From a virus (Duplodnaviria > Heunggongvirae > Uroviricota > Caudoviricetes), in IMG/VR virus record IMGVR_UViG_3300022871_000009, positions 1-64,000 of that record: DNA of 64,000 bases, one strand, 5' to 3'. This document shows positions 1,587 through 39,973 of this stretch, piece after piece. The notes under the pieces were generated by a model. The model had not been told where the DNA came from, ran no database searches, and was given only the letters and a program-made list of their open reading frames with translations. The translations under genes were made by a program, and so were the position numbers. The first letter of the stretch is position 1; each line of letters begins with the position of its first letter.

Positions 1587-2108
1587 TTAACGAAACCAAT
1601 AATAATAAGCTTTCTGTTGGGGGTGAAACTCTGTTTCATTTTTAGCCCAACCACGAATCACGTCAACAGGTAATCCTACACGTAGTCTCAAAAGGTTATA
1701 AAATATTCTACCAACTCTTCCGTTACCATCCTCAAATGGGTGAATCCTTTCAAACATTATATGATTCGATTTAACCAACTCCTTCAAACCAACAGCCCCT
1801 CGCATGCAAGACAACTTATTAAAATCTTTACAGAAATTAGCCACTTCACATTTGAGTAAATTACTACTGATAAATCTCTTACAATCTCCACCTATCCAAA
1901 CATCACACTCTCGGAACTTCCCAGCAATTCTAGGGTTTATATTTTTCAACAAATAGTTGTGTACTCTCAGAACATCACTAACTTTGATATCTCTCTTTTG
2001 CTTATCAATCCATGTCCATGCCTTCTCGGCGTCTTTCATAGACCTTTCGCTGTATTCACGCTCAATCCAGTTAGATTGCTCAAGAAAGTAGCTTACTTCA
2101 TCTTGCAT
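1587..2108 (-). CDS. Fic/Doc family protein (putative AMPylase)
   Basis: Canonical Fic motif HPFEDGNGRVGR (HxFx[D/E]GNGRxxR). Confidence 0.75.
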   Translation of the reverse strand: MQDEVSYFLEQSNWIEREYSERSMKDAEKAWTWIDKQKRDIKVSDVLRVHNYLLKNINPRIAGKFRECDVWIGGDCKRFISSNLLKCEVANFCKDFNKLSCMRGAVGLKELVKSNHIMFERIHPFEDGNGRVGRIFYNLLRLRVGLPVDVIRGWAKNETEFHPQQKAYYYWFR

Positions 2109-2995
2109 AAACTTTCTTTTAGTATTTTAGTTAACACTTTTTTAAATCTTTTTTTAGGGTTGTACTTCAGAACATAACCAGCTTTTAGAATGTTCGCGAA
2201 CGAATAAGAAATGTCTTCTTTCTGAGCAGGGATTCTATCGAAATTACACCAAATCTTTTTCTTCTCACATATCTTGGTGAAAATCTTTTCCATTTCATCC
2301 AACGTGATTACCTCTGCCCCACCAAGATGGAACACTCTAGCAATCTCTGGACTCTCAGAACTATAATCTGGCATTTTCTTTACCAACGAGCACACACCTT
2401 CCACCAAGTCTCCAACGTAGGTGTAGCCACGAGCTGATTTACCATCCCCATAAAAAGGGATTTCTTTTCCACTATTTATTTTCTCTATCCATTTGTAAAC
2501 TACCATATCTTTTCTACCATTTTCGCCATACACAGAGAATGGTCTTACAATAAACCAATTCAAGTCACTATTCTTCACAAGCATTTCTCCTGTCACCTTT
2601 GTTACTCCATAATTTGAAATTGGATTATACGGAGCACACTCTGCCAACCCTTTTTCGCTGTCACTATTTCCACCCAATACAGATGAACTGCTAAAGAAAA
2701 TAAGATTATCACAACCATGCTTTTCGCAGGCGCTAATCACGTTAGCAGTACCTTCGATGTTTGTGCTGATATATTCACTTGGATATTCGATACTCTTCAA
2801 AACTCCAGCTCTAGCTGCTAAATGGATTACAGCATCGAATTGACCCTCACCCATCACTTTGTCCAAATTGAACTTATCACGAGTGTCATCACCATCAACA
2901 ATATCATAACCGGTAACATCGTAGCCTTGTTTTTTTAATTGTTGGACAAGGCGTGTTCCAATGAAACCATGGTGCCCAGTTACTAATATTTTCAT
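2093..2995 (-). CDS. NAD-dependent sugar epimerase/dehydratase (UDP-glucose 4-epimerase-like)
   Basis: N-terminal Rossmann MKILVTGHHGFIGTRL. Catalytic YxxxK (YGVTK). Length 300 aa. Confidence 0.75.
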   Translation of the reverse strand: MKILVTGHHGFIGTRLVQQLKKQGYDVTGYDIVDGDDTRDKFNLDKVMGEGQFDAVIHLAARAGVLKSIEYPSEYISTNIEGTANVISACEKHGCDNLIFFSSSSVLGGNSDSEKGLAECAPYNPISNYGVTKVTGEMLVKNSDLNWFIVRPFSVYGENGRKDMVVYKWIEKINSGKEIPFYGDGKSARGYTYVGDLVEGVCSLVKKMPDYSSESPEIARVFHLGGAEVITLDEMEKIFTKICEKKKIWCNFDRIPAQKEDISYSFANILKAGYVLKYNPKKRFKKVLTKILKESLCKMK

Positions 2996-3923: not shown

Positions 3924-5678
3924 TTAACTAACTATTTTTCCGCCAAATTCTTTTACCACTAATTTAGCTAGTTTGTTGTCTTCTCGAACGCTGTCCATTT
4001 CAGTTCCTCTCATCCATTCGCCAAGCTTCTTGTAGTCCCCAGTTTCTGAATCAAATTCAACTTCAACCATTCCCTCGCCATTTGGATTCCTGGCTTTTGG
4101 GATAAAGAATTTGGTTTTGTATTGTTTATGCTTCTCTTCCTTGCTAACTGACCTGTCTCTCCACAAACTAATCACGTAGTTAGCGTTCTGCACAATTGAA
4201 ATACTGTCTTTGAAACTATCGAGTGTAGGCTTCTTGCCTTCTAGTTTCTTGTAGTGAACAACGAGCAATATTCTCGCCCCTGTCCTACGTTGCAAGGTTC
4301 TAAGTCGAATCATTATTCGCTCAATGTAATCTGCTTTACTTCCGCTCTTTGCAAACAAATCGAAGTAATGCAAATGGTCCACAAGGAACATTCCCACACC
4401 TTGGGAGGCTTGTCTTTCTATCAACTCCTCGAGCAAATCAATGTTCATCATGCTATCAACTTTCGCAAACATGATATTCTCGTTCAGCAATTCGTAGCGT
4501 GCTTCTTCCAGATATCCTTTATAATTTTTATCAGTGATTTCGTTACGACGATATTCGTTCCAGTGATAATTCACAGAAGTTGCTCCCTCGTATTTTTTCT
4601 TAATTTGTCCTAGTTTGAAATACAAAGCCTTAATCCCATAGTCTTCAAGTCGGTCCTCGAGCGCATAGACTGCGCATTTGTTCTTCTTGCTTGCTTTATA
4701 AATTACGTTTGTAGCAAATGTTGTTTTTCCAGTTCCCGACTCTCCACCAATTACCACCAACTCGCCTGGGAAAATCCCGGTAAGCTGTTCGTCCAACCAA
4801 TCATATCCGAAGCTGACAATATCTTCTGACTTTGTGTTTCTTAATTCTTTAATTCCCAAGTCTAGAACAGAACTCATATCGAGAAACTCAACGTTATCAG
4901 CTTCAGCTTTTACATCTGCGTTGCTGATGTCTGGAGAATAATTCTTGTCTTTCGAATCAGCTGTCCTACCACGGAATTCTTTTTTACAAATACTATTAAA
5001 AGTTACTCTGAGTTCACTCTCAGGCAACGGAGGTACGTTTGATAAATTCCACTTCTGAACCGTAGGCCACACCATGGATTCCCACTCCCTAGGATTGATT
5101 GAACGAATCAATTTTCCTATGAACTGGGCTGCGGCGTTATTTCGTCCGCCTGATGAAACTCCACTAGAAACTTCGGCCCAATTCGTTTGAGGTAATTCTG
5201 CAGGCATTGGAACTGGGCTGAGGGAAACACCGAAGAATTCTTTTGGAAAATCAACCATGTCTTCATCGAAAGTTGACCACTCGTAGTGTTCTCCACTTGC
5301 GTGCAACGATGGTGGGGCTACTACATAGCCGCCTTCTCCACGAATATCTGTCAGCTCTTTGATACGAGCTTTGTTCCCAACACCCTCGCAATAATTATAA
5401 TAATAATGCCAACCACCCCCACCAGTTTTGACGATTTTAGTCATTGGCAAACCTTTGGTGTCTCCACCTTTTTCAACGTCAATGACTGTAATCCCAGAAA
5501 TTTTCCCTGTGATTATTCCGATATTTGCATCAGGGAATTTCGTCCACCACGCTTCGACTTCTTCTGCGGTTGCACGACGTTTTTGAAATTCTAACCAAGA
5601 GACCATCGGTAGTTTGTTCTTCCCAACGGGAATTACCGAGTAGCCTTGTGATAAATATTCTAGTGCGTATTTCTTCAT
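3924..5678 (-). CDS. bifunctional primase-polymerase (Prim-Pol N-terminal domain) / DnaB-like helicase
   Basis: N-terminal Prim-Pol-like region (YSVIPV...GGGGWHYYYNY). C-terminal P-loop GESGTGKTTFATNV, then a RecA/DnaB-like helicase fold with Walker B LFLVDHL. Confidence 0.8.
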   Translation of the reverse strand: MKKYALEYLSQGYSVIPVGKNKLPMVSWLEFQKRRATAEEVEAWWTKFPDANIGIITGKISGITVIDVEKGGDTKGLPMTKIVKTGGGGWHYYYNYCEGVGNKARIKELTDIRGEGGYVVAPPSLHASGEHYEWSTFDEDMVDFPKEFFGVSLSPVPMPAELPQTNWAEVSSGVSSGGRNNAAAQFIGKLIRSINPREWESMVWPTVQKWNLSNVPPLPESELRVTFNSICKKEFRGRTADSKDKNYSPDISNADVKAEADNVEFLDMSSVLDLGIKELRNTKSEDIVSFGYDWLDEQLTGIFPGELVVIGGESGTGKTTFATNVIYKASKKNKCAVYALEDRLEDYGIKALYFKLGQIKKKYEGATSVNYHWNEYRRNEITDKNYKGYLEEARYELLNENIMFAKVDSMMNIDLLEELIERQASQGVGMFLVDHLHYFDLFAKSGSKADYIERIMIRLRTLQRRTGARILLVVHYKKLEGKKPTLDSFKDSISIVQNANYVISLWRDRSVSKEEKHKQYKTKFFIPKARNPNGEGMVEVEFDSETGDYKKLGEWMRGTEMDSVREDNKLAKLVVKEFGGKIVS

Positions 5679-5682
5679 ATTT

Positions 5683-6969
5683 TTATAAGTTTACGTATTT
5701 TAGATATCCGCCTTCCTTCATCATGAAGTCGTACATGCTGTAGCGGTGCAGTTGATAGCCATTGCCATTTGCTGTGCGGTTTAGAATCTCTTTGGCATAT
5801 TTTGAAATGGCATTCTGCCATTGCGATTTTGAAATCCCTATTCCCTGCCAGTAGGTCGCTGTTAACTCTGTCGGACCGAGAACGGAAGGGAAAAGCCCCA
5901 AGTCATAAACCGACTGATTCAAGCAGTCAGCCACCTCAAGACGTTTCATTGCTTCGGTGCCAGCAAAATGGTTCCAGTTCTTGATAGCTTCGTTGAGCGT
6001 GAATCCAGTTGCAGATGTTATCTCGCCCCGTTCAGGACTGGCCGTTGTGGAAGCGTTGATTTTATCTCGGGTGGTATTCATGGACCGCTTTTGGTCCGCC
6101 AGGTTTCTTTGGTGCCAAGTAGATACAGCTGACTTCCACTTCTTCATTCGATTCGACCCAATCATCCAATCCTTAGATTCGTAGTGGTGCCAGAAACTGG
6201 TTGCGTCGATTTCTGTGTATTTGCTTTCTTTCAAATATTCTTCAACATCTTCGATTGTGGGTTTGATAAAACCATTTGAGAACTTCTTCCTTTTGGCCCC
6301 ACCCTCCCGCGCGCAAATCCTATTCTCTAAAGAGGGTTCTTTCTTTTGTTTAGTTTCTTTTGTTGTTATCAGGGCTGATAACACCCTGTTATCAGGGCTG
6401 ATAACACCCCCCCCATTTTTGGGTAGTGAGACCGTTTTGAGAGCACCCCTGTTTTCCGCTAAGCTATCATCTTTTTCGCATAAGTGAGACCGTTCTGATA
6501 ACACCCGTGAGACCGTTTTGATAACACCCCCATTTGCTGTTTTTTCATCATTCTCAAAAGTGCTATTCTCTTCATTTTCGCCTAAGGTTAGCGGAAAAGC
6601 GGTATTTTGGGCAGAATTGACTTTCTTCTTCTCTAGAACGACCCATTTTTCACTGTATTTTATGAATTTTAAGCTGTTTATCTTATGATTTTTAGCGTCT
6701 TTTTTCTCACGCACTACTTCTACTATACCCTTAGCTTCTAGTGAACGTAGAACTCTTGGGATGTTTTGGCGCATTATTCCTGTCTGCTCAGACAACTGAG
6801 ATAGGGCTATGTAATCTTCTTTTTTGTCCCAACCATACGTCTTCCTTATTATAGCCAAAACTATTCTAAATTCAACATTAGACAACTTCACCATGCAGAG
6901 GTCGTCTATAATTTCATTGGCTATTCTAGTGTAGCCATTTTCTAATTGTGCACCGTGAGCGTCTGACAT
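5683..6969 (-). CDS. phage replication initiator, lambda O-like N-terminal wHTH domain
   Basis: N-terminus (GYTRIANEIIDDL...VEFRIVLAIIRKTYGWDKKEDYIALSQLSEQTGIMRQNIPRVLRSLEAKGIV) closely matches the replication protein O N-terminal family. DNA iterons lie in the central linker. Confidence 0.8.
   Translation of the reverse strand: MSDAHGAQLENGYTRIANEIIDDLCMVKLSNVEFRIVLAIIRKTYGWDKKEDYIALSQLSEQTGIMRQNIPRVLRSLEAKGIVEVVREKKDAKNHKINSLKFIKYSEKWVVLEKKKVNSAQNTAFPLTLGENEENSTFENDEKTANGGVIKTVSRVLSERSHLCEKDDSLAENRGALKTVSLPKNGGGVISPDNRVLSALITTKETKQKKEPSLENRICAREGGAKRKKFSNGFIKPTIEDVEEYLKESKYTEIDATSFWHHYESKDWMIGSNRMKKWKSAVSTWHQRNLADQKRSMNTTRDKINASTTASPERGEITSATGFTLNEAIKNWNHFAGTEAMKRLEVADCLNQSVYDLGLFPSVLGPTELTATYWQGIGISKSQWQNAISKYAKEILNRTANGNGYQLHRYSMYDFMMKEGGYLKYVNL
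6365..6530. promoter_or_regulatory. candidate replication origin: five iterons with core TGA(T/G)A(A/G)CACCC inside the initiator gene
   Basis: Cores at 6376, 6399, 6438, 6496 and 6519. Two 23-bp tandem copies each contain the palindrome GTTATCAGGGCTGATAAC. Three copies of GTGAGACCGTT(T/C)TGATAACACCC. The arrangement matches ori-lambda lying inside the O gene. Confidence 0.6.
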
Positions 6970-6972
6970 AGT

Positions 6973-7380
6973 TTATTCTTCATTTTTCTCTGAGTTTGGC
7001 ATGAAAGCCTTGTTAAGACAAAATTTGTCTTTGCGCATTTTTATATAATCCATCTTATATAGGTAGTTGATATTTTTGAGCGTTCTGTATCTAGTCATTC
7101 CTGGTCGCTCTTTTAGACCTTTGCTCTTGAGGTCTTTTAATCTAAATTTGCGGGCCTGTTGATACGTCTCAGGAATTGACAAACACACTTTCGTGTCCTG
7201 AAACATGTCAGCAATATGTCTTGTCTGCACACTATGTAGTCTCTCTCTATAATCAATGTAGTCGTATGTTGTTTTTTTCATATTCATAAAATAAAAAATC
7301 CCTTGTAAGTGTCCACGACCCAAATGGTCGCCATGTCTATACAACGCCCAATTGGGAGTGCGCGCTTGAGAAGCGGACAT
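6973..7380 (-). CDS. hypothetical protein
   Basis: 135-aa ORF. Confidence 0.4.
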   Translation of the reverse strand: MSASQARTPNWALYRHGDHLGRGHLQGIFYFMNMKKTTYDYIDYRERLHSVQTRHIADMFQDTKVCLSIPETYQQARKFRLKDLKSKGLKERPGMTRYRTLKNINYLYKMDYIKMRKDKFCLNKAFMPNSEKNEE

Positions 7381-7440
7381 TTACAAGAGATTACATAGAC
7401 ATTTGGAATAAATTGTTAGTTCGTAGTCATTATACCACGA

Positions 7441-7782
7441 TTAATCCTTTTTGTCAAGTTCTTCTTTCTCCTCCTTAGGAGCGGAGCGAAAAGCTTGGTT
7501 GATTTTGTTGTTAGGATTTTTGTATTCGTTCATCACCATTGACTTCAGGCTCCACAAATTTGTAATTAGAGCTCTTGGGTCAACTTTCAACTTGCCTTGC
7601 CAGAATTCATTGACTGATTTAGACAACTCATCTGTTGGCTCAAAATTGAAATATCCAACTGGATTACGCTTCTCCCCTTCTATCTGGTAGTCTACTCTGA
7701 CAATATCAAATTTAAGAGTCACGAGTGTTGTTGCTAGGTAAATGTCCCTAGTAGAAAAAGTAGTCTTTTCCTTATTTTCCAT
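7441..7782 (-). CDS. hypothetical protein
   Basis: 113-aa ORF preceded by a promoter-like motif. Confidence 0.45.
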   Translation of the reverse strand: MENKEKTTFSTRDIYLATTLVTLKFDIVRVDYQIEGEKRNPVGYFNFEPTDELSKSVNEFWQGKLKVDPRALITNLWSLKSMVMNEYKNPNNKINQAFRSAPKEEKEELDKKD

Positions 7783-7815
7783 ATGATTTTATATTATTTT
7801 TTATATTCCGACCCT

Positions 7816-7844
7816 ATTATAGCATAAGTCCCTATTTACTATCA
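7816..7844 (-). promoter_or_regulatory. promoter with conserved extended -10 element AGGACTTATGCTATAAT
   Basis: Reverse complement TGATAG-17-TATAAT. A 16-nt block identical to the sites at 8632, 41388 and 55114. Confidence 0.45.
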
Positions 7845-7983
7845 GATACAAGCAAGACACGAAATAGCAGATGTAGAAGCACCCTGGACGAAAAGGATTT
7901 TGTGTCTTGCTATCATTCGCTTAAAAAAGCGACGCTGTTTGCACCTTTTCTATCTCATCGTATCTTCCTTGTAGCTGGTAGTT

Positions 7984-7999
7984 GTAAAGTACATTCACC
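7984..7999. repeat. 16-bp direct repeat TGTAAAGTACATTCAC, copy 1
   Basis: Exact second copy at 8403..8418. The two copies flank the small gene 8135..8359. Confidence 0.5.
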
Positions 8000-8134
8000 C
8001 AATCTCTATTAACTATGACCATGAAGTCCCAATATAAATTAGGCAATTACAGTCAATAGAGTTAGATGTAATTATACACACCAATTAACAAAATTGGATG
8101 AATATACTCTTAAAGCTCAGGGTCAAAGAATTAA

Positions 8135-8359
8135 TTATTCCTCTAGTGTTCCATCTGGATAAACATCTTCACTGCACACACAATGCCTCCAGAAAGCGTT
8201 AATACAATGACCAAAATCGTCTCTTGCCATATCTTTGACTGCTTTCTCTTGTCTCTCGTTGAGACCTATACCCTCTATTATGGTTAATATTTTTCCCTCT
8301 AAAAACTTGACTTGACCAGATGATTGGTCATAACTTAATAGTTTAGTTTTAACTTTCAT
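8135..8359 (-). CDS. hypothetical protein
   Basis: 74-aa ORF. Confidence 0.4.
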   Translation of the reverse strand: MKVKTKLLSYDQSSGQVKFLEGKILTIIEGIGLNERQEKAVKDMARDDFGHCINAFWRHCVCSEDVYPDGTLEE

Positions 8360-8402
8360 ACTTTACTTGACTTAACTTGACCCTGAATTGTAAAAGAACT
8401 AC

Positions 8403-8418
8403 TGTAAAGTACATTCAC
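8403..8418. repeat. 16-bp direct repeat TGTAAAGTACATTCAC, copy 2
   Basis: Exact match to 7984..7999. Confidence 0.5.
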
Positions 8419-8510
8419 AGACCGCACAATATACAGATAGCAGTCAGCACACCTAGGATACCCCAGGTCCACAGTACTACTCCTAAATTGCCGTCATATC
8501 TCTCTCTCAT
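8415..8510 (-). CDS. possible 31-aa hydrophobic micro-protein
   Basis: Manual translation MRERYDGNLGVVLWTWGILGVLTAICILCGL. About 120 nt downstream of the minus-strand promoter at 8632. No SD sequence. Confidence 0.2.
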   Translation of the reverse strand: MRERYDGNLGVVLWTWGILGVLTAICILCGL

Positions 8511-8631
8511 AATAAATATTATACTGTACCCCTAAAAAGGGGAGTGTAGGTCAACAACTAGTCATAACCGGCTCAGCCTATCTTCCTTTCGTTTTGTCGG
8601 ATACAGACAAATATCTACTATCTTTGACTAC

Positions 8632-8661
8632 ATTATAGCATAAGTCCTACCTAATTGTCAA
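8632..8661 (-). promoter_or_regulatory. promoter TTGACA-18-TATAAT carrying the AGGACTTATGCTATAAT element
   Basis: Reverse complement TTGACAattaggtAGGACTTATGCTATAAT. Divergent from the plus-strand promoter at 8692. Confidence 0.5.
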
Positions 8662-8691
8662 CCTGTTTTTAGACCCTGTGGATAGTAACAC

Positions 8692-8720
8692 TTGACAAGT
8701 TTTCAGTGCTATGGTATAAT
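8692..8720 (+). promoter_or_regulatory. consensus sigma70 promoter (TTGACA-17-TGGTATAAT)
   Basis: CACTTGACAAGTtttcagtgctaTGGTATAAT. Perfect hexamers, extended -10 TG, 17-nt spacer. Confidence 0.6.
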
Positions 8721-8750
8721 GTAGTTAACATTTATTCAAAAGGTCGAATC

Positions 8751-9239
8751 ATGAATAATATACTAATTCAAAAGGAGAAGGTAAAATATAAATATAAATT
8801 TATGAACAATAATACTTTGGTAGTTTCACTACCTAATGGATTGAAAATCTCAGGATTTACATCTGAATCACAAGCAATGAGAGTTGCACGTGGTGCTGAA
8901 TTATCAGAAGGTGTACCTGTAGCTATAAAGGAAAAGAAACTTGGCAGACCTGTAGGAAGTAAGTCAAAAAAGCGTAAGAAATCTTCTAGAGCGTCTTGGT
9001 CCCCAGAAGAAGCAAACTTCATCCTAGACAACCTAGACCAATCAAGCGCTTTCATGAAAAGAACGTTCCTAGCAAATAAACATACAAAAAATGCTATCGC
9101 TGCTCGTTTCTACAACATGAGACAATACATGCTAACTGGTGACGAGGCTTTGTCACGTCAACTAGATTCTTATAGCAGAAGTCGAATTAACGCCCTTAGA
9201 GAAGAAAGTCCATCTGGAGAAAAACTTCCACTGTTCTAA
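8751..9239 (+). CDS. basic DNA-binding protein with AT-hook-like motif (KKLGRPVGSKSKKRKK)
   Basis: The track ORF starts at 8706, but the promoter -10 lies inside that extension. The ATG at 8751 (MNNILIQ...) sits a proper distance from the promoter. Confidence 0.5.
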   Translation: MNNILIQKEKVKYKYKFMNNNTLVVSLPNGLKISGFTSESQAMRVARGAELSEGVPVAIKEKKLGRPVGSKSKKRKKSSRASWSPEEANFILDNLDQSSAFMKRTFLANKHTKNAIAARFYNMRQYMLTGDEALSRQLDSYSRSRINALREESPSGEKLPLF

Positions 9240-9250
9240 ACTAGTTAAGT

Positions 9251-10099
9251 ATGTTTGAACGAAAAAGACCATTGATTAGTATCATACTTCCATGTTGGTT
9301 TACAAAAGAGCAACATGGAAAGTATGGTAAACACGAGACATTCTGGTTTGCTACCAAATGTCTAGAAAGACTCATCGCTGTGACTCCGAAAGACTCCTAC
9401 GAAATAATCATGATTGATAACGGGAGTACTCTTTCAGATGAAGACATTGAGCACGAGGTACAACAACTTATGCTAGGAGCTCCACCTGTGGTTTTCCCGG
9501 CTTATTCTCCCTCAGACTATTGGGCAAAAGCAGATATCCTAATTCGCAATCAACAGAATCTAGGATTTGCACCTGCCTGTAATCAGGGGTTCGCTATCGC
9601 ACGCGGTGAGTACATTTGTTGCCTCAATGACGATATATTAGTTTGGGAAAACTGGGAGACGGCTCTAATCGAGGCATTAGCACTCGAAGTAGAACCTGCA
9701 CCTGGTATTGTTATGCCAGCGCTAATGCGCGAAACGCGTGTAGCCACGGAAGCAATTGAAACCAAAGAAATCGACTTGAAAACTAACGCAAACAAGTTCG
9801 GCCCAGGGGCTGAGTTTGGCTCTCTCTGGTTCTGTAAAAAAGAGCTGTTAGACGAGTTAGTTGTAAAAGACGGCTATGTATTCGATGAGAACTTTAAACT
9901 CGGTATGGGGGAAGATAGAGACCTCTGGGACAGAGTTAGAGTTCTAGGTTACGAGACATATAGAACCCACAACACAAGAGTATTCCACCAAGGCAACATG
10001 ACTATCGGAAAAGTTTCTGATAGAAAAGAATACACCACAAAAAACAGGGAGTACTTAGAGACAAAAAGGAAGGCCCGCGGACAGAGGGAAGAAATTTAA
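9251..10099 (+). CDS. family 2 glycosyltransferase (GT-A fold)
   Basis: N-terminal ISIILPCW...IIMIDNGS pattern plus a DxD-like CLNDD. Confidence 0.7.
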   Translation: MFERKRPLISIILPCWFTKEQHGKYGKHETFWFATKCLERLIAVTPKDSYEIIMIDNGSTLSDEDIEHEVQQLMLGAPPVVFPAYSPSDYWAKADILIRNQQNLGFAPACNQGFAIARGEYICCLNDDILVWENWETALIEALALEVEPAPGIVMPALMRETRVATEAIETKEIDLKTNANKFGPGAEFGSLWFCKKELLDELVVKDGYVFDENFKLGMGEDRDLWDRVRVLGYETYRTHNTRVFHQGNMTIGKVSDRKEYTTKNREYLETKRKARGQREEI

Positions 10100-13714: not shown

Positions 13715-14749
13715 ATGATGGGCGTAATCGGGGATATGCATTTACGTGAAAAACTTGGATATGCTGATTATCTACCTGATAAGCGTATCCCAGAAAAAGA
13801 AGCTGTTCTGAAATTTATCAGAAAGAAGTTTGAGAAATGCGATTCAATAGTATTTGTAGGTGACCAGCTTAACAGCAGGAACAACATATCAGAAGTAATT
13901 AGAGGATTCGTGCAGTTTGTAGAAACGTTCAATGATAAGAAAGTTTACATACTTGCAGGTAATCATGAGAAAAAAGGAGACGGTAAAAGTGCCATAGATT
14001 TCATGCGGGAGATAGACAAACCCAACTGGACGATAATCACAGACGATATACTCGTCACAGATATGAATGGTATAAAAGGAGCGTTCTGTCCATACTTCTA
14101 TAAGACAGAACTAGAAGTTGATACAAATGAAAAAGGTGCTAAAAAATTAATGAAAAAACTGGAAGCGGCTGGTGAAGCAGATATAATATTCCACCACCAC
14201 GCTGTGACTGACACTACTACAGAGGGAGGTACTCCGACCAGTATATTTGATGAGATAGTCCTATCTAGAAAAGCTCTTGAAAAGAAATACAAACTAGTAG
14301 TTGGAGGTCATGTACACAAACCTCAGATAGTAGATAAAACTATTGTAACTGGAAGTGTGTTTACACATGACGCTGGAGAGGTAGAGAAATCAATCTACAT
14401 AATTGATGAGAAGACATTGAAGGTAGAAACTATCAACTTACCTGTGAGACCTATATATAAGTTGGTTGACCCAACTGAAGAAGAGATAGGTAAACTGAGT
14501 GACAATGGAATAGCTAAAGTAGAACTAAAGAAAAAGTTGAATGCTAATAAGTTGATGGCTCTAAAAGAATTACTAGAAAAGAAACTGGATGCCTACGTTC
14601 TTCTAGAGAACTATGAAAAAGAAAGAAAGAAAGTTCATTTCGAAGAAGGCATGTTAGACTTCAGCATAGAGAACTTGCTGATAGAATACGCAAAACAAAA
14701 TAAAATCCCTAAAGGGAAGTTATTAACAGCATGGGAAACCATTAAGTAG
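13715..14749 (+). CDS. sbcD: SbcD/Mre11-like metallophosphoesterase nuclease
   Basis: Calcineurin-like motifs GDMHL, VFVGDQLN, LAGNHE and GGHVHKPQ in canonical order. Confidence 0.75.
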   Translation: MMGVIGDMHLREKLGYADYLPDKRIPEKEAVLKFIRKKFEKCDSIVFVGDQLNSRNNISEVIRGFVQFVETFNDKKVYILAGNHEKKGDGKSAIDFMREIDKPNWTIITDDILVTDMNGIKGAFCPYFYKTELEVDTNEKGAKKLMKKLEAAGEADIIFHHHAVTDTTTEGGTPTSIFDEIVLSRKALEKKYKLVVGGHVHKPQIVDKTIVTGSVFTHDAGEVEKSIYIIDEKTLKVETINLPVRPIYKLVDPTEEEIGKLSDNGIAKVELKKKLNANKLMALKELLEKKLDAYVLLENYEKERKKVHFEEGMLDFSIENLLIEYAKQNKIPKGKLLTAWETIK

Positions 14750-17760: not shown

Positions 17761-18591
17761 ATGAAAATATTAATCTTTGGTGCAGGATGGATAGGCAAAC
17801 TCTGTAAAGAATACTGGGGCGATGAAGCCATACTTATAGATGAGTTTATCAAAAGTCCAGGACAAGCTGGGCACTTTATAGAAAAACATAAACCAGACGC
17901 AGTGCTTAACGCTGCAGGTATAGTAGGTAAACCTAATGTAGATTGGTGTGAAGACCATCAATTCGAAACATTTGAAGGCAACACTCAGTTACCGTTATTG
18001 ATTGCAAACGCTTGCCGCAAATATGGTGTCTATATGTTACATATTGGCACTGGTTGTATCTATTACGGATACAAAGATGGAGGCTGGCTTCCAGAAGACT
18101 ATGCTAACCCTGTCGCTGTATACACTCGTACAAAATACGCCGCTGACTTAGTTCTAGCAACTCTACCTAACGTAGGTATAGCTCGTATCAGAATGCCAAT
18201 CCACTCTGTTCCTAGTCGAGCAAACTTGATTGACAAATTAGCTTCGTATCCAAAAGTTGTAGATGTAGAAAATAGCGCTACAGTTGTAGAAGACATGCAA
18301 ATGGCATTCTATAAATTGATGGAACAGAAGGTTGAGGGTATCTTCCATGTAGTGAACCCAGGTTCTATCACACACAAGGAAATCCTCAAGCTATATGAAG
18401 AACATGTAGATGAAAATCATACTAACGAATGGATTACTGCACAAGAGCTTACAGACTTAGGTCTAGCTTCAAAAACTAGGTCTAACAATGTTCTAAATAC
18501 AGAAAGTTTAGAAGAGCTCGGTATTGAAATGCGACCTATAAGAGTTGCTGTTGCAGACGCCATGGAAAAATATAGCAAACTTAAAAAATAA
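17761..18591 (+). CDS. NAD(P)-dependent sugar-nucleotide reductase/epimerase (RmlD-like)
   Basis: Rossmann MKILIFGAGWIGK. YxxxK (YTRTKYAAD). Adjacent to rmlB/rmlA. Confidence 0.55.
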   Translation: MKILIFGAGWIGKLCKEYWGDEAILIDEFIKSPGQAGHFIEKHKPDAVLNAAGIVGKPNVDWCEDHQFETFEGNTQLPLLIANACRKYGVYMLHIGTGCIYYGYKDGGWLPEDYANPVAVYTRTKYAADLVLATLPNVGIARIRMPIHSVPSRANLIDKLASYPKVVDVENSATVVEDMQMAFYKLMEQKVEGIFHVVNPGSITHKEILKLYEEHVDENHTNEWITAQELTDLGLASKTRSNNVLNTESLEELGIEMRPIRVAVADAMEKYSKLKK

Positions 18592-18596
18592 CAGCT

Positions 18597-19556
18597 ATGA
18601 AACTATTAGTAACTGGAGGGGCAGGCTTTATAGGGTCAAACTTTATCCATTACTGGATGGAGCGACACCCAGCCGATGAAATATTAAATGTAGATAAACT
18701 AACTTACGCTGGTAATTTAGACAATCTCAAAGGTGTAGACAAATTAGATAATTACACTTTTGTACAAATGGACATCTGTGACCCAAAAATGGAAAATTCA
18801 ATAAAATGGTGTGACATAGTAGTGCACTTCGCTGCTGAAACACACGTTGATAATTCCTTAGAGTCAGCAGATGCATTCATCAAAACCAACGTGAATGGAA
18901 CTTACAACATTCTAAAATACGTACAAAAATACGATAAAAGAATGCACCATATTTCTACGGATGAAGTGTTTGGCTCGCTGCCTCTGGGAACTGATGAGAA
19001 ATTTAGCGAAAATACTCCATACTCTCCTAGAAATCCTTACTCAGTTACAAAAGCTGCCGCTGATTACATGGTTAGATGTTTCCATGATACGTATGGAACA
19101 AAGATAACCATCAGCAACTGCTCTAACAACTACGGACCACGTCAGCATATAGAGAAAATGATTCCTAAAGCTATCACCAACATCTTACAAGGAAAGACAG
19201 TCCCAGTATATGGTACAGGAGAAAACGTAAGAGATTGGTTGCATGTTACAGAACATTGCCGTGCTGTAGAAGCAATAATTTACAGAGGTAGAATAGGAGA
19301 GACTTATTGTGTTGGTGGTATGGATGAGGGTATAAGCAATTTGCAGTTGGTAGAAACAATGGCTGATATGCTACAACTCGATTCAAAGGATTGTATAAAA
19401 TTTGTAAAAGACAGGGCGGGACATGACCTGAAATATGCTGTTAACTGGAATAAAATTAACGGAGAACTGGGCTGGTCCCCAACATTAGACTTTGAAACTA
19501 ATTTAGCAGACACTATTCAGTGGTATAGAGAAAACCGTTGGTGGTGGAATGAATAA
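18597..19556 (+). CDS. rmlB: dTDP-glucose 4,6-dehydratase
   Basis: MKLLVTGGAGFIGSNF...DKLTYAGNL...YSVTKAAAD. Typical RfbB sequence and length. Confidence 0.85.
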   Translation: MKLLVTGGAGFIGSNFIHYWMERHPADEILNVDKLTYAGNLDNLKGVDKLDNYTFVQMDICDPKMENSIKWCDIVVHFAAETHVDNSLESADAFIKTNVNGTYNILKYVQKYDKRMHHISTDEVFGSLPLGTDEKFSENTPYSPRNPYSVTKAAADYMVRCFHDTYGTKITISNCSNNYGPRQHIEKMIPKAITNILQGKTVPVYGTGENVRDWLHVTEHCRAVEAIIYRGRIGETYCVGGMDEGISNLQLVETMADMLQLDSKDCIKFVKDRAGHDLKYAVNWNKINGELGWSPTLDFETNLADTIQWYRENRWWWNE

Positions 19557-20315: not shown

Positions 20316-22427
20316 ATGTTGGCACTCAAGGAACTACAACTTAAGAATTTTCTAAGTCATAGCGACACGAAAATTGAATTCAAACCTAACCAGAAGATGC
20401 TTATTGATGGCAAATCTGGGGCAGGTAAATCTTCAATTGTGGAGGCTATCGTTTGGGTGCTATACGGAAAAGGAAGAACTGACAATAGGTCCTTGGTAAG
20501 ACAAGGAGAAAAGTCAGGTAAAGTAGTTTTGGTGCTGAGCACGACGGAAACTGGCGAAGTTTTGAAGATAGAGAGGGAAGCAACGCTTACAGGTAAGAAC
20601 ACCCTCAAAGTCTCTAAACAGACCAAGAAGGGCAATTTCTTGCCAGTTAAGGTAAATGGTTTACGTGCATTACAAGAGCATTTAGAGACAGAGATTTTAA
20701 ACTCTTCGTATCTGTTGTTCATCAACTCTATCGTTTATCCTCAAGATAGTATAGACAGTTTTGTAAAACAAACAGCGGTCAAAAGGAAAGAGATTATACT
20801 CGAGATTGCTAATGCTCAGAATTATGATGAGTACTATGACAAAGCAAAGGAAGCTCTCGCCAAGACAATCTCTGATACTGATAAGAACGATGCACTGATT
20901 CTAAATCTACAATCTCTGATAAAAGGAGATAAACTAGAGACAACAAAAACTGACGAACTTGAAAAAGACTATGCTACAAAAAGTGCAGCGTTAGAAGTTC
21001 AAAAGAAATCTCTAGAGGAATTATCTACAGCGCTATCATCTACACTTGAAAAAAGAAACAAAGCTAACGAAGTAAAGAGCAAAATTGCAGATGCAACTAC
21101 TAACAAGAAGATTCTAGAAAGTCAGATAGAAGAGGCAAACACCTCTTTGATTGGCTTACTAACAAGAGATTTATCTGAAGAAAAAAAAGAGCTAGAGAAA
21201 CTCCCTGGGGTAAGAAAAGATTTTGATAAAATTGAACAAACAGAAGAAGCAATGAGGAAATGGGATGAAGGACTCATCAAGTTGATGAACCTCAAACCAA
21301 TAGACTTCAACTTCGATACTGATATCAACTATCTGAATGAGCAGTTGATTTCTGCGCTAAAGGTAGATAAGTTTGTTTGTCCAGAGACCAAGAAGGAATG
21401 TCCATACATGAATAAAGACAAGAACGACCATATTGAACGTTTGAAAGATAAACTGAAAAGCAAAACAGAACAAAAAACGGCATACTTGGTAGAAGAGGAA
21501 AAGTACGTTAAACAAGTTGAGACATTAGGAATCAAACCTGAAGTAGATATAGCTTCAAAAAACTTTACTACTCGTGAGTTAAAGAAACTAGAGCTACTTG
21601 AGAATGAGATAAAGAAAACAGAAGAAACAATGGAAGAGCGTAAGAAAGATTATACTGACGTGATTACACAAAATAACATTACTATTAAAAAAGTAGATGC
21701 TGATATAGAAGAGTTGAGTGGCGGATTACCAAATACGGATGTTCTAGATACCGAAATTAATACATACATCGCGAAGCAGATGAAGCTACAAGTATCTGTC
21801 AATGACTTATCTGTCGTTACATCTGATATCAAATACAAACTATCAACAGCCCAAGGGGCAGCTAAAAGAATAGAGAAGAATGAGGCGTCAGTTACTAAAC
21901 TGAAAGAAGAAAATGTTAAATTATTAGATGAAGGAGAAGGATTCAAGTTGTTAAAAGGTGCCTTCAGTCAGAATGGAGTAAAGGCAATTGTGATAGATTA
22001 TATCATCCCTCGTCTAGAAGAGAAGATAAACAACATTTTGGAGCGCCTATCCAGCTTCAGGATACGCCTAGAGACGCAAAAATCAAGCGTTAAGGGCGAT
22101 TCCACCATAGAAGGTCTCTTTATCACCATTTTCAACGAACAAGGCTTAGAATTCAATTTCGACAATTATTCAGGTGGAGAAAGACTTAAGATAATTGTAG
22201 CCATATCAGAGGCTCTGGCAGAGATTCAGAAGATTGGATTCAGAGTTCTAGATGAATTGTTTATTGGCCTTGATGAAGAGTCAACTGAGAAGTTTGTAGA
22301 AGTGATGGCCACTCTACAAGAAAGATTCGACCAAATGCTCTGTATCTCACATCTACGTAATATCAAAGATACGTTTGATGAGAAAATAGAGATTGTTAAA
22401 AATAATGGAATATCTAAAATTGCGTAA
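20316..22427 (+). CDS. sbcC: SbcC/Rad50-like ATPase
   Basis: Walker A GKSGAGKSS. Long coiled coil with a CPETKKECPY zinc-hook-like CxxC. Signature YSGGERLK. Walker B VLDELFIGLDEE. H-loop ISHL. Confidence 0.8.
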   Translation: MLALKELQLKNFLSHSDTKIEFKPNQKMLIDGKSGAGKSSIVEAIVWVLYGKGRTDNRSLVRQGEKSGKVVLVLSTTETGEVLKIEREATLTGKNTLKVSKQTKKGNFLPVKVNGLRALQEHLETEILNSSYLLFINSIVYPQDSIDSFVKQTAVKRKEIILEIANAQNYDEYYDKAKEALAKTISDTDKNDALILNLQSLIKGDKLETTKTDELEKDYATKSAALEVQKKSLEELSTALSSTLEKRNKANEVKSKIADATTNKKILESQIEEANTSLIGLLTRDLSEEKKELEKLPGVRKDFDKIEQTEEAMRKWDEGLIKLMNLKPIDFNFDTDINYLNEQLISALKVDKFVCPETKKECPYMNKDKNDHIERLKDKLKSKTEQKTAYLVEEEKYVKQVETLGIKPEVDIASKNFTTRELKKLELLENEIKKTEETMEERKKDYTDVITQNNITIKKVDADIEELSGGLPNTDVLDTEINTYIAKQMKLQVSVNDLSVVTSDIKYKLSTAQGAAKRIEKNEASVTKLKEENVKLLDEGEGFKLLKGAFSQNGVKAIVIDYIIPRLEEKINNILERLSSFRIRLETQKSSVKGDSTIEGLFITIFNEQGLEFNFDNYSGGERLKIIVAISEALAEIQKIGFRVLDELFIGLDEESTEKFVEVMATLQERFDQMLCISHLRNIKDTFDEKIEIVKNNGISKIA

Positions 22428-25223: not shown

Positions 25224-25249
25224 AAGAAGAATATTATTCTTCTTTTTTT
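25224..25249. terminator. bidirectional rho-independent terminator between convergent genes
   Basis: AAGAAGAATA/TATTCTTCTT stem flanked by A-run and T-run. Overlaps the last codons (KKEE) of the minus-strand 1798-aa gene. Confidence 0.5.
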
Positions 25250-28200
25250 GATGAAAGTCCAGCAGTCATAGCCCCTAGAGTTCCCAATAACATGGTATAG
25301 AGAGGTGTTTTTCCAGAGTACCATTTTTTATCTGCACCTTGTCTCATGTTGTTTTTTACATCTTGTATAAACATGTAACTGGCTTTCTTTGCAAGTATCC
25401 TTGCTTCTTCCTTTGTTACGTCTTTTTGAGTTAGCGCTTCTAAGAACCATGTTAGTGAATTGAATTGTACTTCCTCAAGCTCTCTAGAAGTTTTCACAAA
25501 AGCAGAGTCTCCAGTGGACTCTCCAATTTCAGCACGAATAACCATATCATTTGTGTTCTCCCATGACTGTCTATCTTCAAGCCACTTTCTTTCTATTTTT
25601 TCGGAAACCCAATCAGGCAAAAATTCTTTTTTACCTGTCTCATCCCATCTATCTATAGCAGCTTTATCACTTCCTGAAAGTTTCTTGTATTCTACACCAA
25701 GTTTTTCTAACTCCGTTTTATTCTGTGGACCTGCAGTAAATTTACGAACAGCTTCATACATGTCGAACTGCTCAATTTTACTTTGTGCTTGTTTTTCAGT
25801 CATCTTGATATTTCTTCTCTTTGCATCTTTCAACATATCAGAGACCTGTTTTTCTTTGGCTGTAAACCCACCTCTTGCATATGTCCCAACCTGAATTCTA
25901 GCATTAGGATATGTTTCTTTTATACTTTTAACAAAGTTCTTCAAAACTTTAGGCAATTTATCAAATCTCTCTAGATTTACTAGTTGGCTAAGTTGAGAAA
26001 ATTCTTTAGTTACTGAAATATCATCCTTATGAAGAGTCCCGAGGGGTTTATCTATTTCAATATGTCTCCATGTTTCTTTTTTCCCACCTCTATCTAACCA
26101 TTTGTACCAGTCACTTATCGAATCTTTGATTCCCTTGAAGAACTCACTACCCATATCTTCTCCTTTGTAAAGTTGTCTACCAGAAGCAATGACTTCTTTT
26201 ATTTCAGCAGCTTGTTTATCAGGACTAACAGACTTTTTGATATTTTTTATCAACAACTCATTTTCATTGATTATATCATTTAATGTATAGTCACTTTTTT
26301 TCTTTCCGCCATATTTAGTTCTGAAATTTTTAGCAACATCGCTCTTACTGTTCGCTGTCTCTACTTTTTTACCAAGTTCTGATAACTGCTTATATAACAG
26401 GTTCTCTCTTTTCTCATTTATTCTAAGCATTTCTGTTGGAATAGCAGACTTGTTGGAGCTACCGGCTGGTTTTACAAATACAGTCATTCTTTCATCTGTT
26501 TTCCTAAATTCTACCTTATACTTTTTCTTCTGTTGTTCTGGTAACCAATTATCACCTAATCCTCCAGAGTACTCAAGGTCAGTCATTTCGAATGGTTTAA
26601 GGTACTCTTTCTGCTCTTGTAAATGGTTTTTTAATTGTTTTCTAAGTGTCTCTCTCTCAGCAAAATCAAGAATTGCTTTCTCAGTCTTATTCCCGGGAAT
26701 ATAGCGTGTTGTCACTGGAATGTCATCAACATTTTTGTTCATTATCTCAATTAACCTTTCATACTTCTGCTCAGTACTCGCCTTATTTTTTCCACCGAAC
26801 AATGTGTCCTCTGCCTTTACAAGCTTTTCTTTAATTAGTGAAAACTTGTTGTTGTATTCTTGCTTAGCTTTTTCTTTGGTCAATGTAGGAAGCTTTTCCC
26901 AATTTTGAGTTTTTTCTTCAAAAGCTTTTTTGAATTTCTTTCCAGCTGATTCTTCAGGAACTGCTATATCAACAGGATTTTTATCCTTAGTTTTGTTAAA
27001 TTTTTCAAATCTTTCTTTAGAAGATGTGATGGCTTTTTTTGCAATACTTCTAGATTCTTCTCCAGTTGCTTTTGTCTTTAAATTAAAAGCAGATTTCGGT
27101 CTTTTTTTCCAATCAACAATTCTTTCTGAAAATATATGGTCCATTGTCCCATCTTCTTTTCTTATTAACAACTTTCCACCTTGAGCCTCTTGGTTGCTTA
27201 AAATAGCTACTTCCTCATCAGATATCACTTTTTCTTTTTTTCTATCTACTTTGCCAGGGACGTACCCAAGAACTTCTCCAGAGGTTTCTGATATCGTTCC
27301 TTTTGAATCTAAACTCTTATGTCTAAGAGTAATAGTTTCTCCTGTTTTAAATGTCCCTTTCTTAGCCAACTCATCCACAAATACAGTTTCGTATCTTTTG
27401 GTTTTAAAGTTCAAACCTCTCTCTGGATTAACTATTCTTTCCGATAACAAACTAAAGTCATTCGTTTGATATTGTTTCTGTGCTTCTTTTAGAGATACCA
27501 CAGATACAATTGATTTCTTTCCATCTTTTTCAACTTGATATTTTGTTGCTATGTCTTCACCAGTTTTAAATCTAGAGGACTTTGTGGTTTCTCCATTATT
27601 TTTGTGGAAAACTACATATTGGTCTTTTCCTGTTTTATCTCCGTTTTGTGTTAATTTAGGAATTACATCACTCTTGTATTCATTCTTTATTTCTCTACCA
27701 GACGCTATAGCCTTTTTTGCAGTCTCTTTCGCTTCAACCTTCTTCTCTAATGCTTTTTTTGGTGTCACAAAACGCTCTTTAGCACCAACTATAGCTTTTT
27801 TCGCCGTCTCCTTGGCCTTCTTCTCAACCACCTTGGCTGTTTCTTTAACTGCATCCATCTTCTTTGAGAATCGTTCCTTGAATGGAATATCTTGCATAGG
27901 AAGTTGTGGTTGCTCTGGTTGTATATTTTGTGCTATCTCTCCTGTAGCCTGTCTTGTTGGTCGTCCTTGTAATTCAGCATCGTTAAACAAATACATGTTA
28001 TCTAATTTTGCTCTTTCTTCAGCAGGTAATTTTCTTAAATAACCATCTCTTTTCATTATCAAAGTATAATATCCGTCACCATTGCTATTTAGAACTCCCT
28101 CTCTTTTTAATTTTGTTATTGTATTTACGACATCTTTAATTCTAATATTTTTAGCGTTTTTGAGCATAGTTGTAGCTGTGGCTTCATTCATGTAAGACCC

Positions 28201-38218: not shown

Positions 38219-39973
38219 TTATACTTGATTTTCTGTTTCAGAAGTCTCCTCGTAAACAACTGCCATACGGGAGATTTTACATTTCTTCTTAGTGAAATCT
38301 CTTATACTTATTTTTATCCGTCTACATCTTGGTGGTTGAGCTTGTTCAGAATCTTTGCTTGTAACTTTGAGTATTGCACATCCTTTATTAATGTTTCCTT
38401 TTATCTGATAAAAGGGTTCATTGTCTAGAGAAACAAAACACTCCATTCCACTTCCTCGTTCAACTTCTACAATTATGCTATGCACACGAGAGAAGTTCTC
38501 AAAATTTTGTGCTAATGTTAAGTTTTCTGTATCTATTCTGAAAGGAATCTCTTCACCACTGTCTTGTTCTGTATTGAATAATTCATAAATATTGTATTTT
38601 GAATCTTTAGAAGCGTATTCTAACCTATCTGGATTATCATCAGCAATGTAAGTAGCGAATATCGTAGCATCAATTTCTGTGTGTACATACCAATTCTCTT
38701 GGCGCATGTTGTATTCTAGACATACATCAGAAAGTGTTTTATCTATTGAGCCGTCGGGGTTGTATAGAGTCACATCTCCAATAGCGAAGAACACGCTCTC
38801 TCCTTTTTTACCTGCGGCGGCCGCCTCTAAGCCTGCTATGGTAGCTCCATCAATATACTTTTGTACTTTAGCTGACATTAATTTAGGAACACTACCATTT
38901 GTAGCGAATATACCCGTGTAATGAAGGAACCAAAGTCCCCCGAGTGTTTTGACAAAGCCGAAGTCAGACACACACCCTATACCTAGGTCTAAATTCTGTA
39001 AATTGTAATCATTCCATATGGCGAGGTTATTCTTATTCGCGATAACCATCATGTTCCCTATATTTGTGAGCATCTTGATGCTATCATTCTGATTTCCAGT
39101 TAGATAAAAAGTGTCGTATTCTTTTACAGGAGCTCCACTAGGAGAGTTGTTTACCCATCTGAATATCTTTTTCCCTATAAAAGTATTATTTACCCACAAC
39201 TCATCTGCACTTAAAATTGCGCTACTAGTAGCGCTGACAGTAATTGTGTTTTCTGTCTTGGCTGTTATAGTAAGCGTTTCAATCAGGCTCCCGCCCCTAT
39301 ACACCTGCAAAGTATCAGTTGAGTGTATATAAGTTGTATCAGTCACTTCTATACTTGTCACTCCTGCAACATGGTCTCCGCTCACTAAAGCCACAACGCC
39401 AAGCGGTGTGGACGATTGTTGTATACCATTCTTTTTTCTTGTTGAGCTAATATAGATATCAGCAATATATAATCTATCTTTATAAAAATTTACTTTATAT
39501 CCTTTAGGACTGTTATATAGATGTCCAGCCGCAATTGTTGAGGTGACAACAGTAGTTCCGTCAGATTCTATGTATCTATTAGCATCATTTCCATTTACAA
39601 TAAAACAGTTCTCCTCTGCAAATGTGTGGGATGTGTTGGCTGCTGTCAAGCCAGTTCCCCCAGTACCTAAGATTGTCCATGCTCCTGTAGCTCCAGCGTA
39701 ATAAATCGATACCACAGCTCCAACAGTACTACAACGATAAAAACCATTATTAGTGGAATTCTCGAAATAAAACAATCCGTAATTAGCCGTAGCGGCTATT
39801 TCACTCCCTAATCTTCTTGTGCCACCACGCTTCTCTATGGTACCTATCTCTTCTGACCTAGCATTCTCTATATACTTTAATTCATTTTTCTTCCCAATAT
39901 TAGAACCGACAAGAGAGTTAACTCCGTCAAAATACGAGATTTCCATTCTTTTCATTGAGCTTTTAGTAGCCAT
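38219..39973 (-). CDS. hypothetical structural protein (584 aa)
   Basis: ORF in the structural block. Confidence 0.4.
   Translation of the reverse strand: MATKSSMKRMEISYFDGVNSLVGSNIGKKNELKYIENARSEEIGTIEKRGGTRRLGSEIAATANYGLFYFENSTNNGFYRCSTVGAVVSIYYAGATGAWTILGTGGTGLTAANTSHTFAEENCFIVNGNDANRYIESDGTTVVTSTIAAGHLYNSPKGYKVNFYKDRLYIADIYISSTRKKNGIQQSSTPLGVVALVSGDHVAGVTSIEVTDTTYIHSTDTLQVYRGGSLIETLTITAKTENTITVSATSSAILSADELWVNNTFIGKKIFRWVNNSPSGAPVKEYDTFYLTGNQNDSIKMLTNIGNMMVIANKNNLAIWNDYNLQNLDLGIGCVSDFGFVKTLGGLWFLHYTGIFATNGSVPKLMSAKVQKYIDGATIAGLEAAAAGKKGESVFFAIGDVTLYNPDGSIDKTLSDVCLEYNMRQENWYVHTEIDATIFATYIADDNPDRLEYASKDSKYNIYELFNTEQDSGEEIPFRIDTENLTLAQNFENFSRVHSIIVEVERGSGMECFVSLDNEPFYQIKGNINKGCAILKVTSKDSEQAQPPRCRRIKISIRDFTKKKCKISRMAVVYEETSETENQV

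Follow-up and report, generated by a model that had tools for sequence, protein, structure and literature searches.

A putative lambda-O-type replication origin within the initiator gene of a Caudoviricetes genome

The first 64,000 nucleotides (nt) of the IMG/VR virus record IMGVR_UViG_3300022871_000009 (Caudoviricetes), here called the window, carry on the minus strand a gene for a lambda-O-like replication initiator (5683..6969). Its product of 428 amino acids (aa) consists of a winged helix, a linker that contains the translated repeats, a conserved middle domain and, at the C-terminal end, a lineage-specific region. Five 23-nt repeat units (6364-6529) lie in the linker-coding part; in the sense direction, an A-rich tract and then a GC-rich block come next. 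An earlier interpretation made from the letters alone (the sequence-only reading) took the repeats for a candidate origin of replication. The anatomy of this locus, its conservation at the DNA level, the recurrence of its layout among related genes and the bearing of these on a possible origin function are described here.

Membership of the initiator in the O family is evident from its amino-terminal part. Residues 7-96, encoded at 6682..6951 (minus strand) and presumed to form the reader of the repeats, match Pfam PF04492, Phage_rep_O (E=4.8e-25, 88 bits vs a cut-off of 28.7), and the protein also matches PHROG 678, 'replication initiation O-like' (E=3.8e-31). Lambdoid O proteins were matched in a tblastn search of phage records, only across the first 80-120 residues of the initiator. 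In an AlphaFold2 model built from a 30-sequence alignment, the predicted local distance difference test score (pLDDT) is 86-96 for aa 12-115, the winged helix, and 87-96 for aa 232-300, the middle domain. It falls below 50 for aa 125-208, so the repeats are encoded in a linker that is predicted to be disordered; this segment is variable in length and gapped in alignments of homologs. The open reading frame (ORF) is truly continuous, as the chance of 116 linker codons staying open is approximately 4e-4 and the two next best relatives, P0002 and P0003, likewise have the two domains, N-terminal and middle, within a single ORF. In a fold search, the N-terminal model resembles the CodY/MarR winged helices and the N-terminal domains of plasmid Rep proteins, although weakly (all E values at least 0.008). 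The search with the whole model returned nothing for domains other than the N-terminus, and for the middle and C-terminal parts no family emerged from sequence searches of Pfam and PDB. The middle domain (aa 232-300, encoded at 6070-6276, minus strand) has the motif FxKPTIEE...HYES.GW...MK.W...TW and is without a Pfam family. It is widespread in viral contigs and bacterial genomes, and many matches are confined to aa 221-305 and do not extend to the O-like N-terminus (loci L019-L083 and L188-L242). The domain may be an unannotated module of replication proteins.

The repeat units were delimited with a repeat finder and by reading of positions 5500-7200. All are given here as they read on the minus strand, i.e. 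in the sense of the gene, and together they occupy ORF nt 441-606, or aa 147-202. The sense-strand order is B3 and B2, which adjoin; 35 nt; B1; 16 nt; and then A2 and A1, which also adjoin and lead into the A-rich tract and the GC block. Unit B3 (6507..6529, ORF nt 441-463) is GGGTGTTATCAAAACGGTCTCAC, translated as GGVIKTVS, and B2 (6484..6506, ORF nt 464-486) is GGGTGTTATCAGAACGGTCTCAC, read in a frame that differs from that of B3 to give RVLSERSH. B1 (6426..6448, ORF nt 522-544), with the sequence GGGTGCTCTCAAAACGGTCTCAC, has an arm shared by all units that has diverged at two positions and a second arm, GTGAGACCGTT, that is intact. A2 (6387..6409, ORF nt 561-583) is GGGTGTTATCAGCCCTGATAACA, translated as GGVISPDN; A1 (6364..6386, ORF nt 584-606), the unit nearest the A-rich tract, has the same sequence in the other frame (RVLSALIT).

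Two classes of unit can be recognized. A1 and A2, identical on the plus strand as TGTTATCAGGGCTGATAACACCC, hold a perfect 18-nt palindrome, GTTATCAG-GG-CTGATAAC, which is found nowhere else in the window and whose inverted repeat can be described as GTTATC-N6-GATAAC, or, written out, GTTATC-AGCCCT-GATAAC. The B units have the plus-strand consensus GTGAGACCGTTyTGAkArCACCC and consist of one shared arm, an A-tract centre and a different but invariant second arm, GTGAGACCGTT, whose exact occurrences in the window are confined to the three B units. Symmetry in B1-B3 is limited to a weak outer one (GTGnnA...TnnCAC). The sequence-only reading had placed five direct repeats in the linker-coding part of the gene, with an inverted repeat in two 23-bp copies, and these positions and sequences are borne out. 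Two details need correction: the three B units, described as longer, align with the A units as 23-mers, and B1 has TGAGAGC, not TGATAAC.

These sequences are concentrated at one site. The core TGAKARCACCC is matched exactly at five positions of the 64 kb (6376, 6399, 6438, 6496 and 6519), all in the repeat block. With up to one mismatch allowed there are seven matches vs 2.4 expected, a number that was reached in 0 of 100 shuffles, and the two additional matches lie far from the block. The half-site TGATAAC/GTTATCA occurs six times in 6300-6560, vs 0.08 expected from its density in the window. Other clusters of at least four repeated 11-mers are found only in a giant repetitive ORF at 41.4-51.8 kb, where they are coding repeats. 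The A1-A2 palindromes can form single-strand hairpins (z=-2.7), but this potential follows from the dyad symmetry and adds nothing further. A structured-RNA interpretation was rejected, as an Rfam search of 5000-9000 gave nothing credible. Beyond the five units, a search for degenerate copies gave only a match at 6264-6274 (minus strand), with two mismatches and within conserved protein-coding sequence, which was taken as chance. The exact B unit has no match in IMG/VR; the exact A palindrome has two single matches there, which were judged compatible with chance. Of separate interest, eight consecutive C residues at 6407-6414 (G8 on the sense strand) lie within the initiator gene, immediately upstream of A2. 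Slippage could occur at this run and would truncate the initiator after the B units.

Are the repeats maintained as DNA or as peptide? The five units use two codon phases, one giving GGVIKTVS, GALKTVSL and GGVISPDN and the other RVLSERSH and RVLSALIT. The identical A1 and A2 are read as RVLSALIT vs GGVISPDN and the near-identical B2 and B3 as RVLSERSH vs GGVIKTVS. The period of 23 nt shifts the frame, such that identical DNA gives differing peptides, which indicates that the repeats are kept as DNA. A repetitive linker peptide, as first proposed, is thus seen for the three units that share a frame and not for the two in the other. Mixed frames are common elsewhere: lambda iterons 1-4 are in codon phases 1, 3, 3 and 2, and iteron copies are present in at least two codon phases in 68 of 82 related genes.

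Immediately beyond A1 in the sense direction is the A-rich tract (6336..6363, minus strand; sense sequence ACAAAAGAAACTAAACAAAAGAAAGAAC), a candidate unwinding element that is 70-72% AT. It begins with two copies of ACAAAAGA, at 6356-6363 and 6342-6349. The arrangement ACAAAAGA-N6-ACAAAAGA (6342-6363, minus strand) directly abuts A1, the copies being 14 nt apart and in two frames, and the first copy begins 23 nt after the start of A1, in register with the array. A scan of the 64 kb for ACAAAAGA-N5-8-ACAAAAGA gave this one occurrence, vs 0.00 expected. The tract is bounded by a GC-rich block (6296..6316; sense sequence TTGCGCGCGGGAGGGTGGGGC), which ranks with the most stable 40-mers in the window (0-2nd percentile). 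The block may limit the extent of duplex opening.

Closest to the initiator are a truncated identical protein (P0001) and then, at 31-33% identity, P0002 and P0003; neither IMG/VR nor GTDB genomes gave a close relative of the protein as a whole, and DNA near-identical to the window is absent from the phage collection searched. The contigs from uncultivated sources that encode P0002 and P0003 (L001, GCA_017973815.1, and L002, ERZ27251083, respectively) also have arrays in this part of the linker, but with repeats that differ from those of the window and from each other. That of L001 has five GGTGTTACACAAAAwGATAAC units and that of L002 has palindromes of the GGGTTGTTAAAACAAC type. Each has approximately five repeats in several frames, beyond which the sense strand is A-rich and includes motifs that resemble ACAAAAGA, and a TGTTA-N10-TAACA geometry is common to the L001 units and the A units of the window. 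Both proteins have the same order of winged helix-turn-helix, linker and middle domain, but are shorter (236 and 251 aa) and without the C-terminal aa 300-428.

For a broader comparison, 160 loci encoding O-like N-terminal domains were gathered from IMG/VR and metagenomes, and 97 distinct complete O-like genes were scanned, from -1500 to +2500 nt relative to the start codon, for the place where repeated 11-mers cluster most densely. The cluster is centred at +250..+560 in 82 of 86 loci with at least three copies, in 65 of 65 with at least four and in all 43 with at least five, vs a chance expectation of approximately 12%. In the window, the cluster is centred near +520 of the initiator gene. 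Spacing of iterons in the family has a mode of 23 nt (21-24 nt dominate), which is the A1-A2 and B2-B3 spacing, and many of the iterons have an inverted-repeat structure, GTTATC-(A-tract)-GATAAC. The arms and spacing of the A units (GTTATC-N6-GATAAC) are also present in iterons of 12-20 of 150 family genes. A common layout has two iterons 22 nt apart at the part encoding the end of the winged helix, a gap of 68 nt and then four iterons spaced 18, 22 and 23 nt (e.g. L117, L133, L100, L102 and L103, at ORF nt ~220-400). Overall, the combination of iterons and A-rich tract recurs in approximately 150 diverse O-like genes.

Prominent in these tracts is the ACAAAAGA motif. Exact sense copies number 0.42, 0.72 and 0.20 per locus in the 50-nt bins at +350, +400 and +450, vs approximately 0.005-0.01 elsewhere, and the motif is almost nil on the antisense strand. 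At least one exact copy is present in 71 of 98 genes and at least two in 49 of 98; successive copies are mostly 14-15 nt apart, and the median distance from the iteron-cluster centre to the first copy, in the 3' direction, is 83 nt. An independent GTDB set gave a similar picture. The motif is found at +300..+650 in 46 of 53 genes, where it typically adjoins the 3' side of the last iteron and is 52 times as dense as in the remainder of the loci, with hosts that include Omnitrophota, Burkholderiales, Dehalococcoidia, Patescibacteria, Planctomycetota, Ignavibacteriales and Enterobacterales. In lambda (L164, 1120-1155), ACACAAAAGACACTATTACAAAAGAAAAAAG directly follows iteron 4, and the lambda 23-mer ACAAAAGACACTATTACAAAAGA is present, with up to one mismatch, in 24 of 150 family genes. 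The motif is conserved as nucleotides, because ACA-AAA codons are used in 147 of 152 (97%) T-K-[D/E] tripeptides of the motif region, vs 20% from background codon use, and about one-third of the copies are in other frames. The use of a repeated ACAAAAGA, at 14-15 nt and at the start of the A-rich tract, as a mark of such origins was derived here from lambda and approximately 150 family members; in the open-access literature searched, the sequence was encountered only as part of lambda primers.

Does ACAAAAGA constitute more than a part of a generic A+T-rich tract? A tentative suggestion, which we consider somewhat doubtful, is that its recurrence every 14-15 nt marks a sequence-specific element of all O-type initiators, irrespective of the phylum of the host. 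One possibility is recognition of single-stranded ACAAAAGA by the initiator or by the incoming helicase during opening, in the manner of DnaA-trios in bacterial oriC. If the suggestion is right, the origin in the window would consist of a lineage-specific part, the two iteron subtypes, and a universal part, ACAAAAGA.

Located 5 nt downstream of the initiator gene, and next in the operon, is a primase-helicase gene (3924..5678, minus strand; 584 aa) with Prim-Pol (PF09250, 4e-27), PriCT_1 (PF08708, 9.5e-9) and DnaB-like (PF03796, 5.7e-23) domains, which also matches PHROG 239, 'DNA primase/helicase'. This fusion is presumed to be the enzyme recruited to the opened origin. Upstream of the initiator gene and of the preceding ORF (6973..7380) is a promoter-like site (7429..7457, minus strand) that scored 12/12 in a consensus scan (TTGACA-17-TATAAT plus TG). 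Transcription from it would run through the repeat array, although a consensus match is not proof of function. Four sigma-70 promoter-like sites in the window score 12/12 (TTGACA, 17-18 nt, TATAAT and a TG extension): 8661-8632(-), 8692-8720(+), 7457-7429(-) and 3626-3598(-). The first two form a back-to-back divergent pair at a strand switch at ~8.66-8.69 kb.

The segment 6336-6529 is best explained as a lambda-O-type replication origin embedded in the gene of its own initiator, to which we assign a probability of roughly 0.85. The hallmarks of such an origin that can be read from sequence are largely present, and the lambda-like topology first proposed is upheld by the O-like domain, the position of the array, the 23-nt spacing, the mixed frames, the A-rich tract with its ACAAAAGA pair and the recurrence in the family; complete inverted repeats are found in A1 and A2 only. 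In the mechanism proposed on the lambda model, transcription from the promoter-like site near 7440 would yield the initiator and cross the origin. The N-terminal winged helix would bind the five 23-nt units, with A1-A2 as the core pair, probably bound as dimers, and binding would be less symmetric on B1-B3, where one arm is kept and the second is different. The nucleoprotein complex, together with negative supercoiling, would then open the A-rich tract with the ACAAAAGA pair, and opening would be bounded by the GC-rich block. The middle and/or C-terminal part of the initiator, which is not expected to bind DNA, might then recruit the downstream primase-helicase fusion, with the establishment of forks. 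In this account, the structure of the locus, its conservation as DNA and its recurrence in the family are observed, and initiator binding, unwinding, recruitment of the helicase and firing of the origin are inferred.

Several observations weigh against this interpretation. Three of the five units are without full dyad symmetry, and the conserved second arm GTGAGACCGTT of the B units is unexplained by the lambda model. The array does not have the upstream iteron pair found inside the domain-coding part in many relatives, and begins approximately 100 nt further into the gene than is the norm for the family. Duplex instability of the A-rich tract is only moderate, at the 79th-87th percentile of the window, and less stable stretches are present within 1-2 kb (e.g. 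6650-6695, 7037-7077 and 7767-7807). The window is part of a genome, and another origin may be present outside it. Cumulative GC skew, which the sequence-only reading had offered as a check, does not single out the site; its minimum at ~8-10 kb is the switch between divergent gene blocks. Skew is uninformative for the origin, however, because it tracks gene strand and composition throughout the window and is reversed by the giant ORF.

The existence of two classes of unit leads to an alternative that refines a lambda-type origin and does not exclude it. In this alternative there are two binding modes or factors: the A units would be bound by initiator dimers and participate in opening, and the B units by a monomer or by the initiator with a second protein. 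The B units might then serve in control, as in the distinction between iterons and inverted-repeat operators of plasmid Rep proteins. The two classes are clearly distinct and each is conserved internally; none of the three B copies departs from the B-specific arm, although the shared arm of B1 has diverged; and the A units adjoin the A-rich tract, like the two lambda iterons next to the A+T tract that suffice for unwinding (PMC7466680). However, one recognizable DNA-binding domain only is present in the initiator, the B units may simply be imperfect dimer sites (GTGnnA...TnnCAC), as lambda iterons are imperfect too, and last or outer iterons with degenerate arms occur in relatives as well. A division of labour of this type is considered unlikely.

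Could the repeats be initiator-binding sites with a mainly regulatory role? They might participate in autoregulation, initiator titration or a roadblock/attenuation of transcription into the primase-helicase gene, with replication starting elsewhere by a primase-helicase-specific or recombination-dependent route. Control roles are also known for plasmid and lambda iterons, and cloned lambda iterons silence theta replication (PMC3349717). Among the gene products of the window are additional helicases and proteins similar to SbcCD, which could support recombination-dependent replication, and the modest instability of the A-rich tract would be in keeping with a start site elsewhere. On the other hand, the array runs in register into the conserved ACAAAAGA pair, the mark of the lambda unwinding tract, and the full layout of iterons and A-rich tract recurs across the family. 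Regulation would supplement an origin role and not supplant it, and as a replacement for the origin it is very improbable. It is hardly credible that the repeats are slippage or duplication by-products without DNA function, in a low-complexity linker where they are tolerated or needed as peptide: the linker is predicted to be disordered and is variable in length among homologs, and perfect tandem 23-mers could be recent duplications, but the frame shift imposed by the period argues against peptide selection, units have dyad symmetry, many independent genes have repeats of the same position, spacing and arm sequence, and B1, 58 nt from B2, keeps the GTGAGACCGTT arm perfectly.

With a lambda-O-type origin as the favoured explanation, what is its significance? 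For this genome, the locus is the likely start of replication and part of a compact initiator/primase-helicase operon, in an element without close relatives in the collections searched. It should be useful for annotation, for the building of a minimal replicon and for the reading of coverage profiles. More broadly, the lambda design, i.e. inverted-repeat iterons about 23 nt apart in the initiator gene and then an in-register ACAAAAGA, extends far beyond the lambdoid coliphages, as O-like genes with this design are found in genomes of many bacterial phyla. It offers a simple sequence rule for the prediction of origins in uncultivated phages and prophages. Once the O-like domain has been seen, an origin at this position would be expected by a specialist, and the surprise is modest; of more interest is the conservation at the nucleotide level of ACAAAAGA, a motif with a possible role in origin opening.

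The rest of the window has features of interest in their own right. A giant ORF (41418-52412, minus strand) encodes 3664 aa, of which 38.6% are Ser and 16.7% Thr, and has no Pfam match. Long (SSST)n runs alternate with repeated globular-looking modules, and DNA repeats with a 24-nt period create long shadow ORFs on the plus strand and a reversed local GC skew. Around and beside it, there are unusually many PHROG matches to sugar-nucleotide epimerases, glycosyltransferases and methyltransferases. These genes are at 2093-2995(-), 17761-19556(+), 52390-53802(-), 60035-61348(-) and 61969-63402(-), and the ORF at 9251-10099(+) is glycosyltransferase-like by the look of its translation only. The abundance of such genes suggests possible heavy glycosylation of the giant Ser/Thr-rich protein. 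Another very large ORF (25234-30630, minus strand; 1798 aa) is Lys/Glu-rich and has no Pfam match. The SbcD-like (13715-14749, plus strand) and SbcC-like (20316-22427, plus strand) genes are separated by approximately 5.5 kb, which includes sugar-epimerase-like genes.

How does the locus compare with known systems? The lambda origin lies in the middle of gene O, at bases 39034-39160, or +348..+474 of O (PMC3349717), with the iterons at +348..+432. O dimers bind four 18-19-bp inverted-repeat iterons, and the neighbouring 38-40-bp A+T tract opens on supercoiled DNA (PMC5043065, PMC7466680, PMC3349717); the origins of the Stx phages P27 and 933W have six iterons (PMC3349717, PMC5043065, PMC7466680). 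Common to lambda and the window are the Phage_rep_O N-terminus, an origin (here putative) in the initiator gene just after the part that encodes the DNA-binding domain, an A-rich sense tract immediately after the iterons that starts with two copies of ACAAAAGA, and transcription through the origin from upstream, here from a candidate promoter. Iterons four to six in number, 20-24 nt apart, in several reading frames and, in the case of A1 and A2, fully inverted-repeat, are a likeness to both lambda and the Stx phages. There are also differences from lambda. Protein identity is confined to the N-terminal domain (~43-47% over ~80 aa). The units of the window are 23 nt long and of two subtypes, with two units fully symmetric, the array lies approximately 100 nt further in, the gene is longer (428 aa vs 299 aa), and the ACAAAAGA copies are 14 nt apart vs 15 nt in lambda. 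The genome in the window is low in GC. The gene downstream is not that of a P-type loader that borrows the host helicase, as in lambda, but a fusion of Prim-Pol, PriCT_1 and a DnaB-like helicase (DnaB_C).

The pairing of an O-family initiator with a phage-encoded replicative helicase, and not with a loader, is that of P22 (gene 18 initiator and gene 12 DnaB-type helicase), although the helicase of the window is fused to a Prim-Pol primase and PriCT_1. The P22 origin is reported to lie inside the initiator gene. A lambda/P22 hybrid in which 18-12 replaces O-P is mentioned in the literature (PMC3349717). In iteron plasmids (e.g. pPS10, F, R6K and RK2), winged-helix initiators bind direct repeats of ~17-23 bp beside an A+T-rich unwinding element (PMC4980987, PMC5043065), and the N-terminal model of the initiator weakly resembles the Rep N-terminal domains 5kbj and 4pql. 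Plasmid iterons, however, are outside the rep gene, and the Rep proteins belong to other families and are typically monomers on iterons. The locus thus represents a well-known design in a new genome, and its differences from lambda leave the kind of system unchanged.

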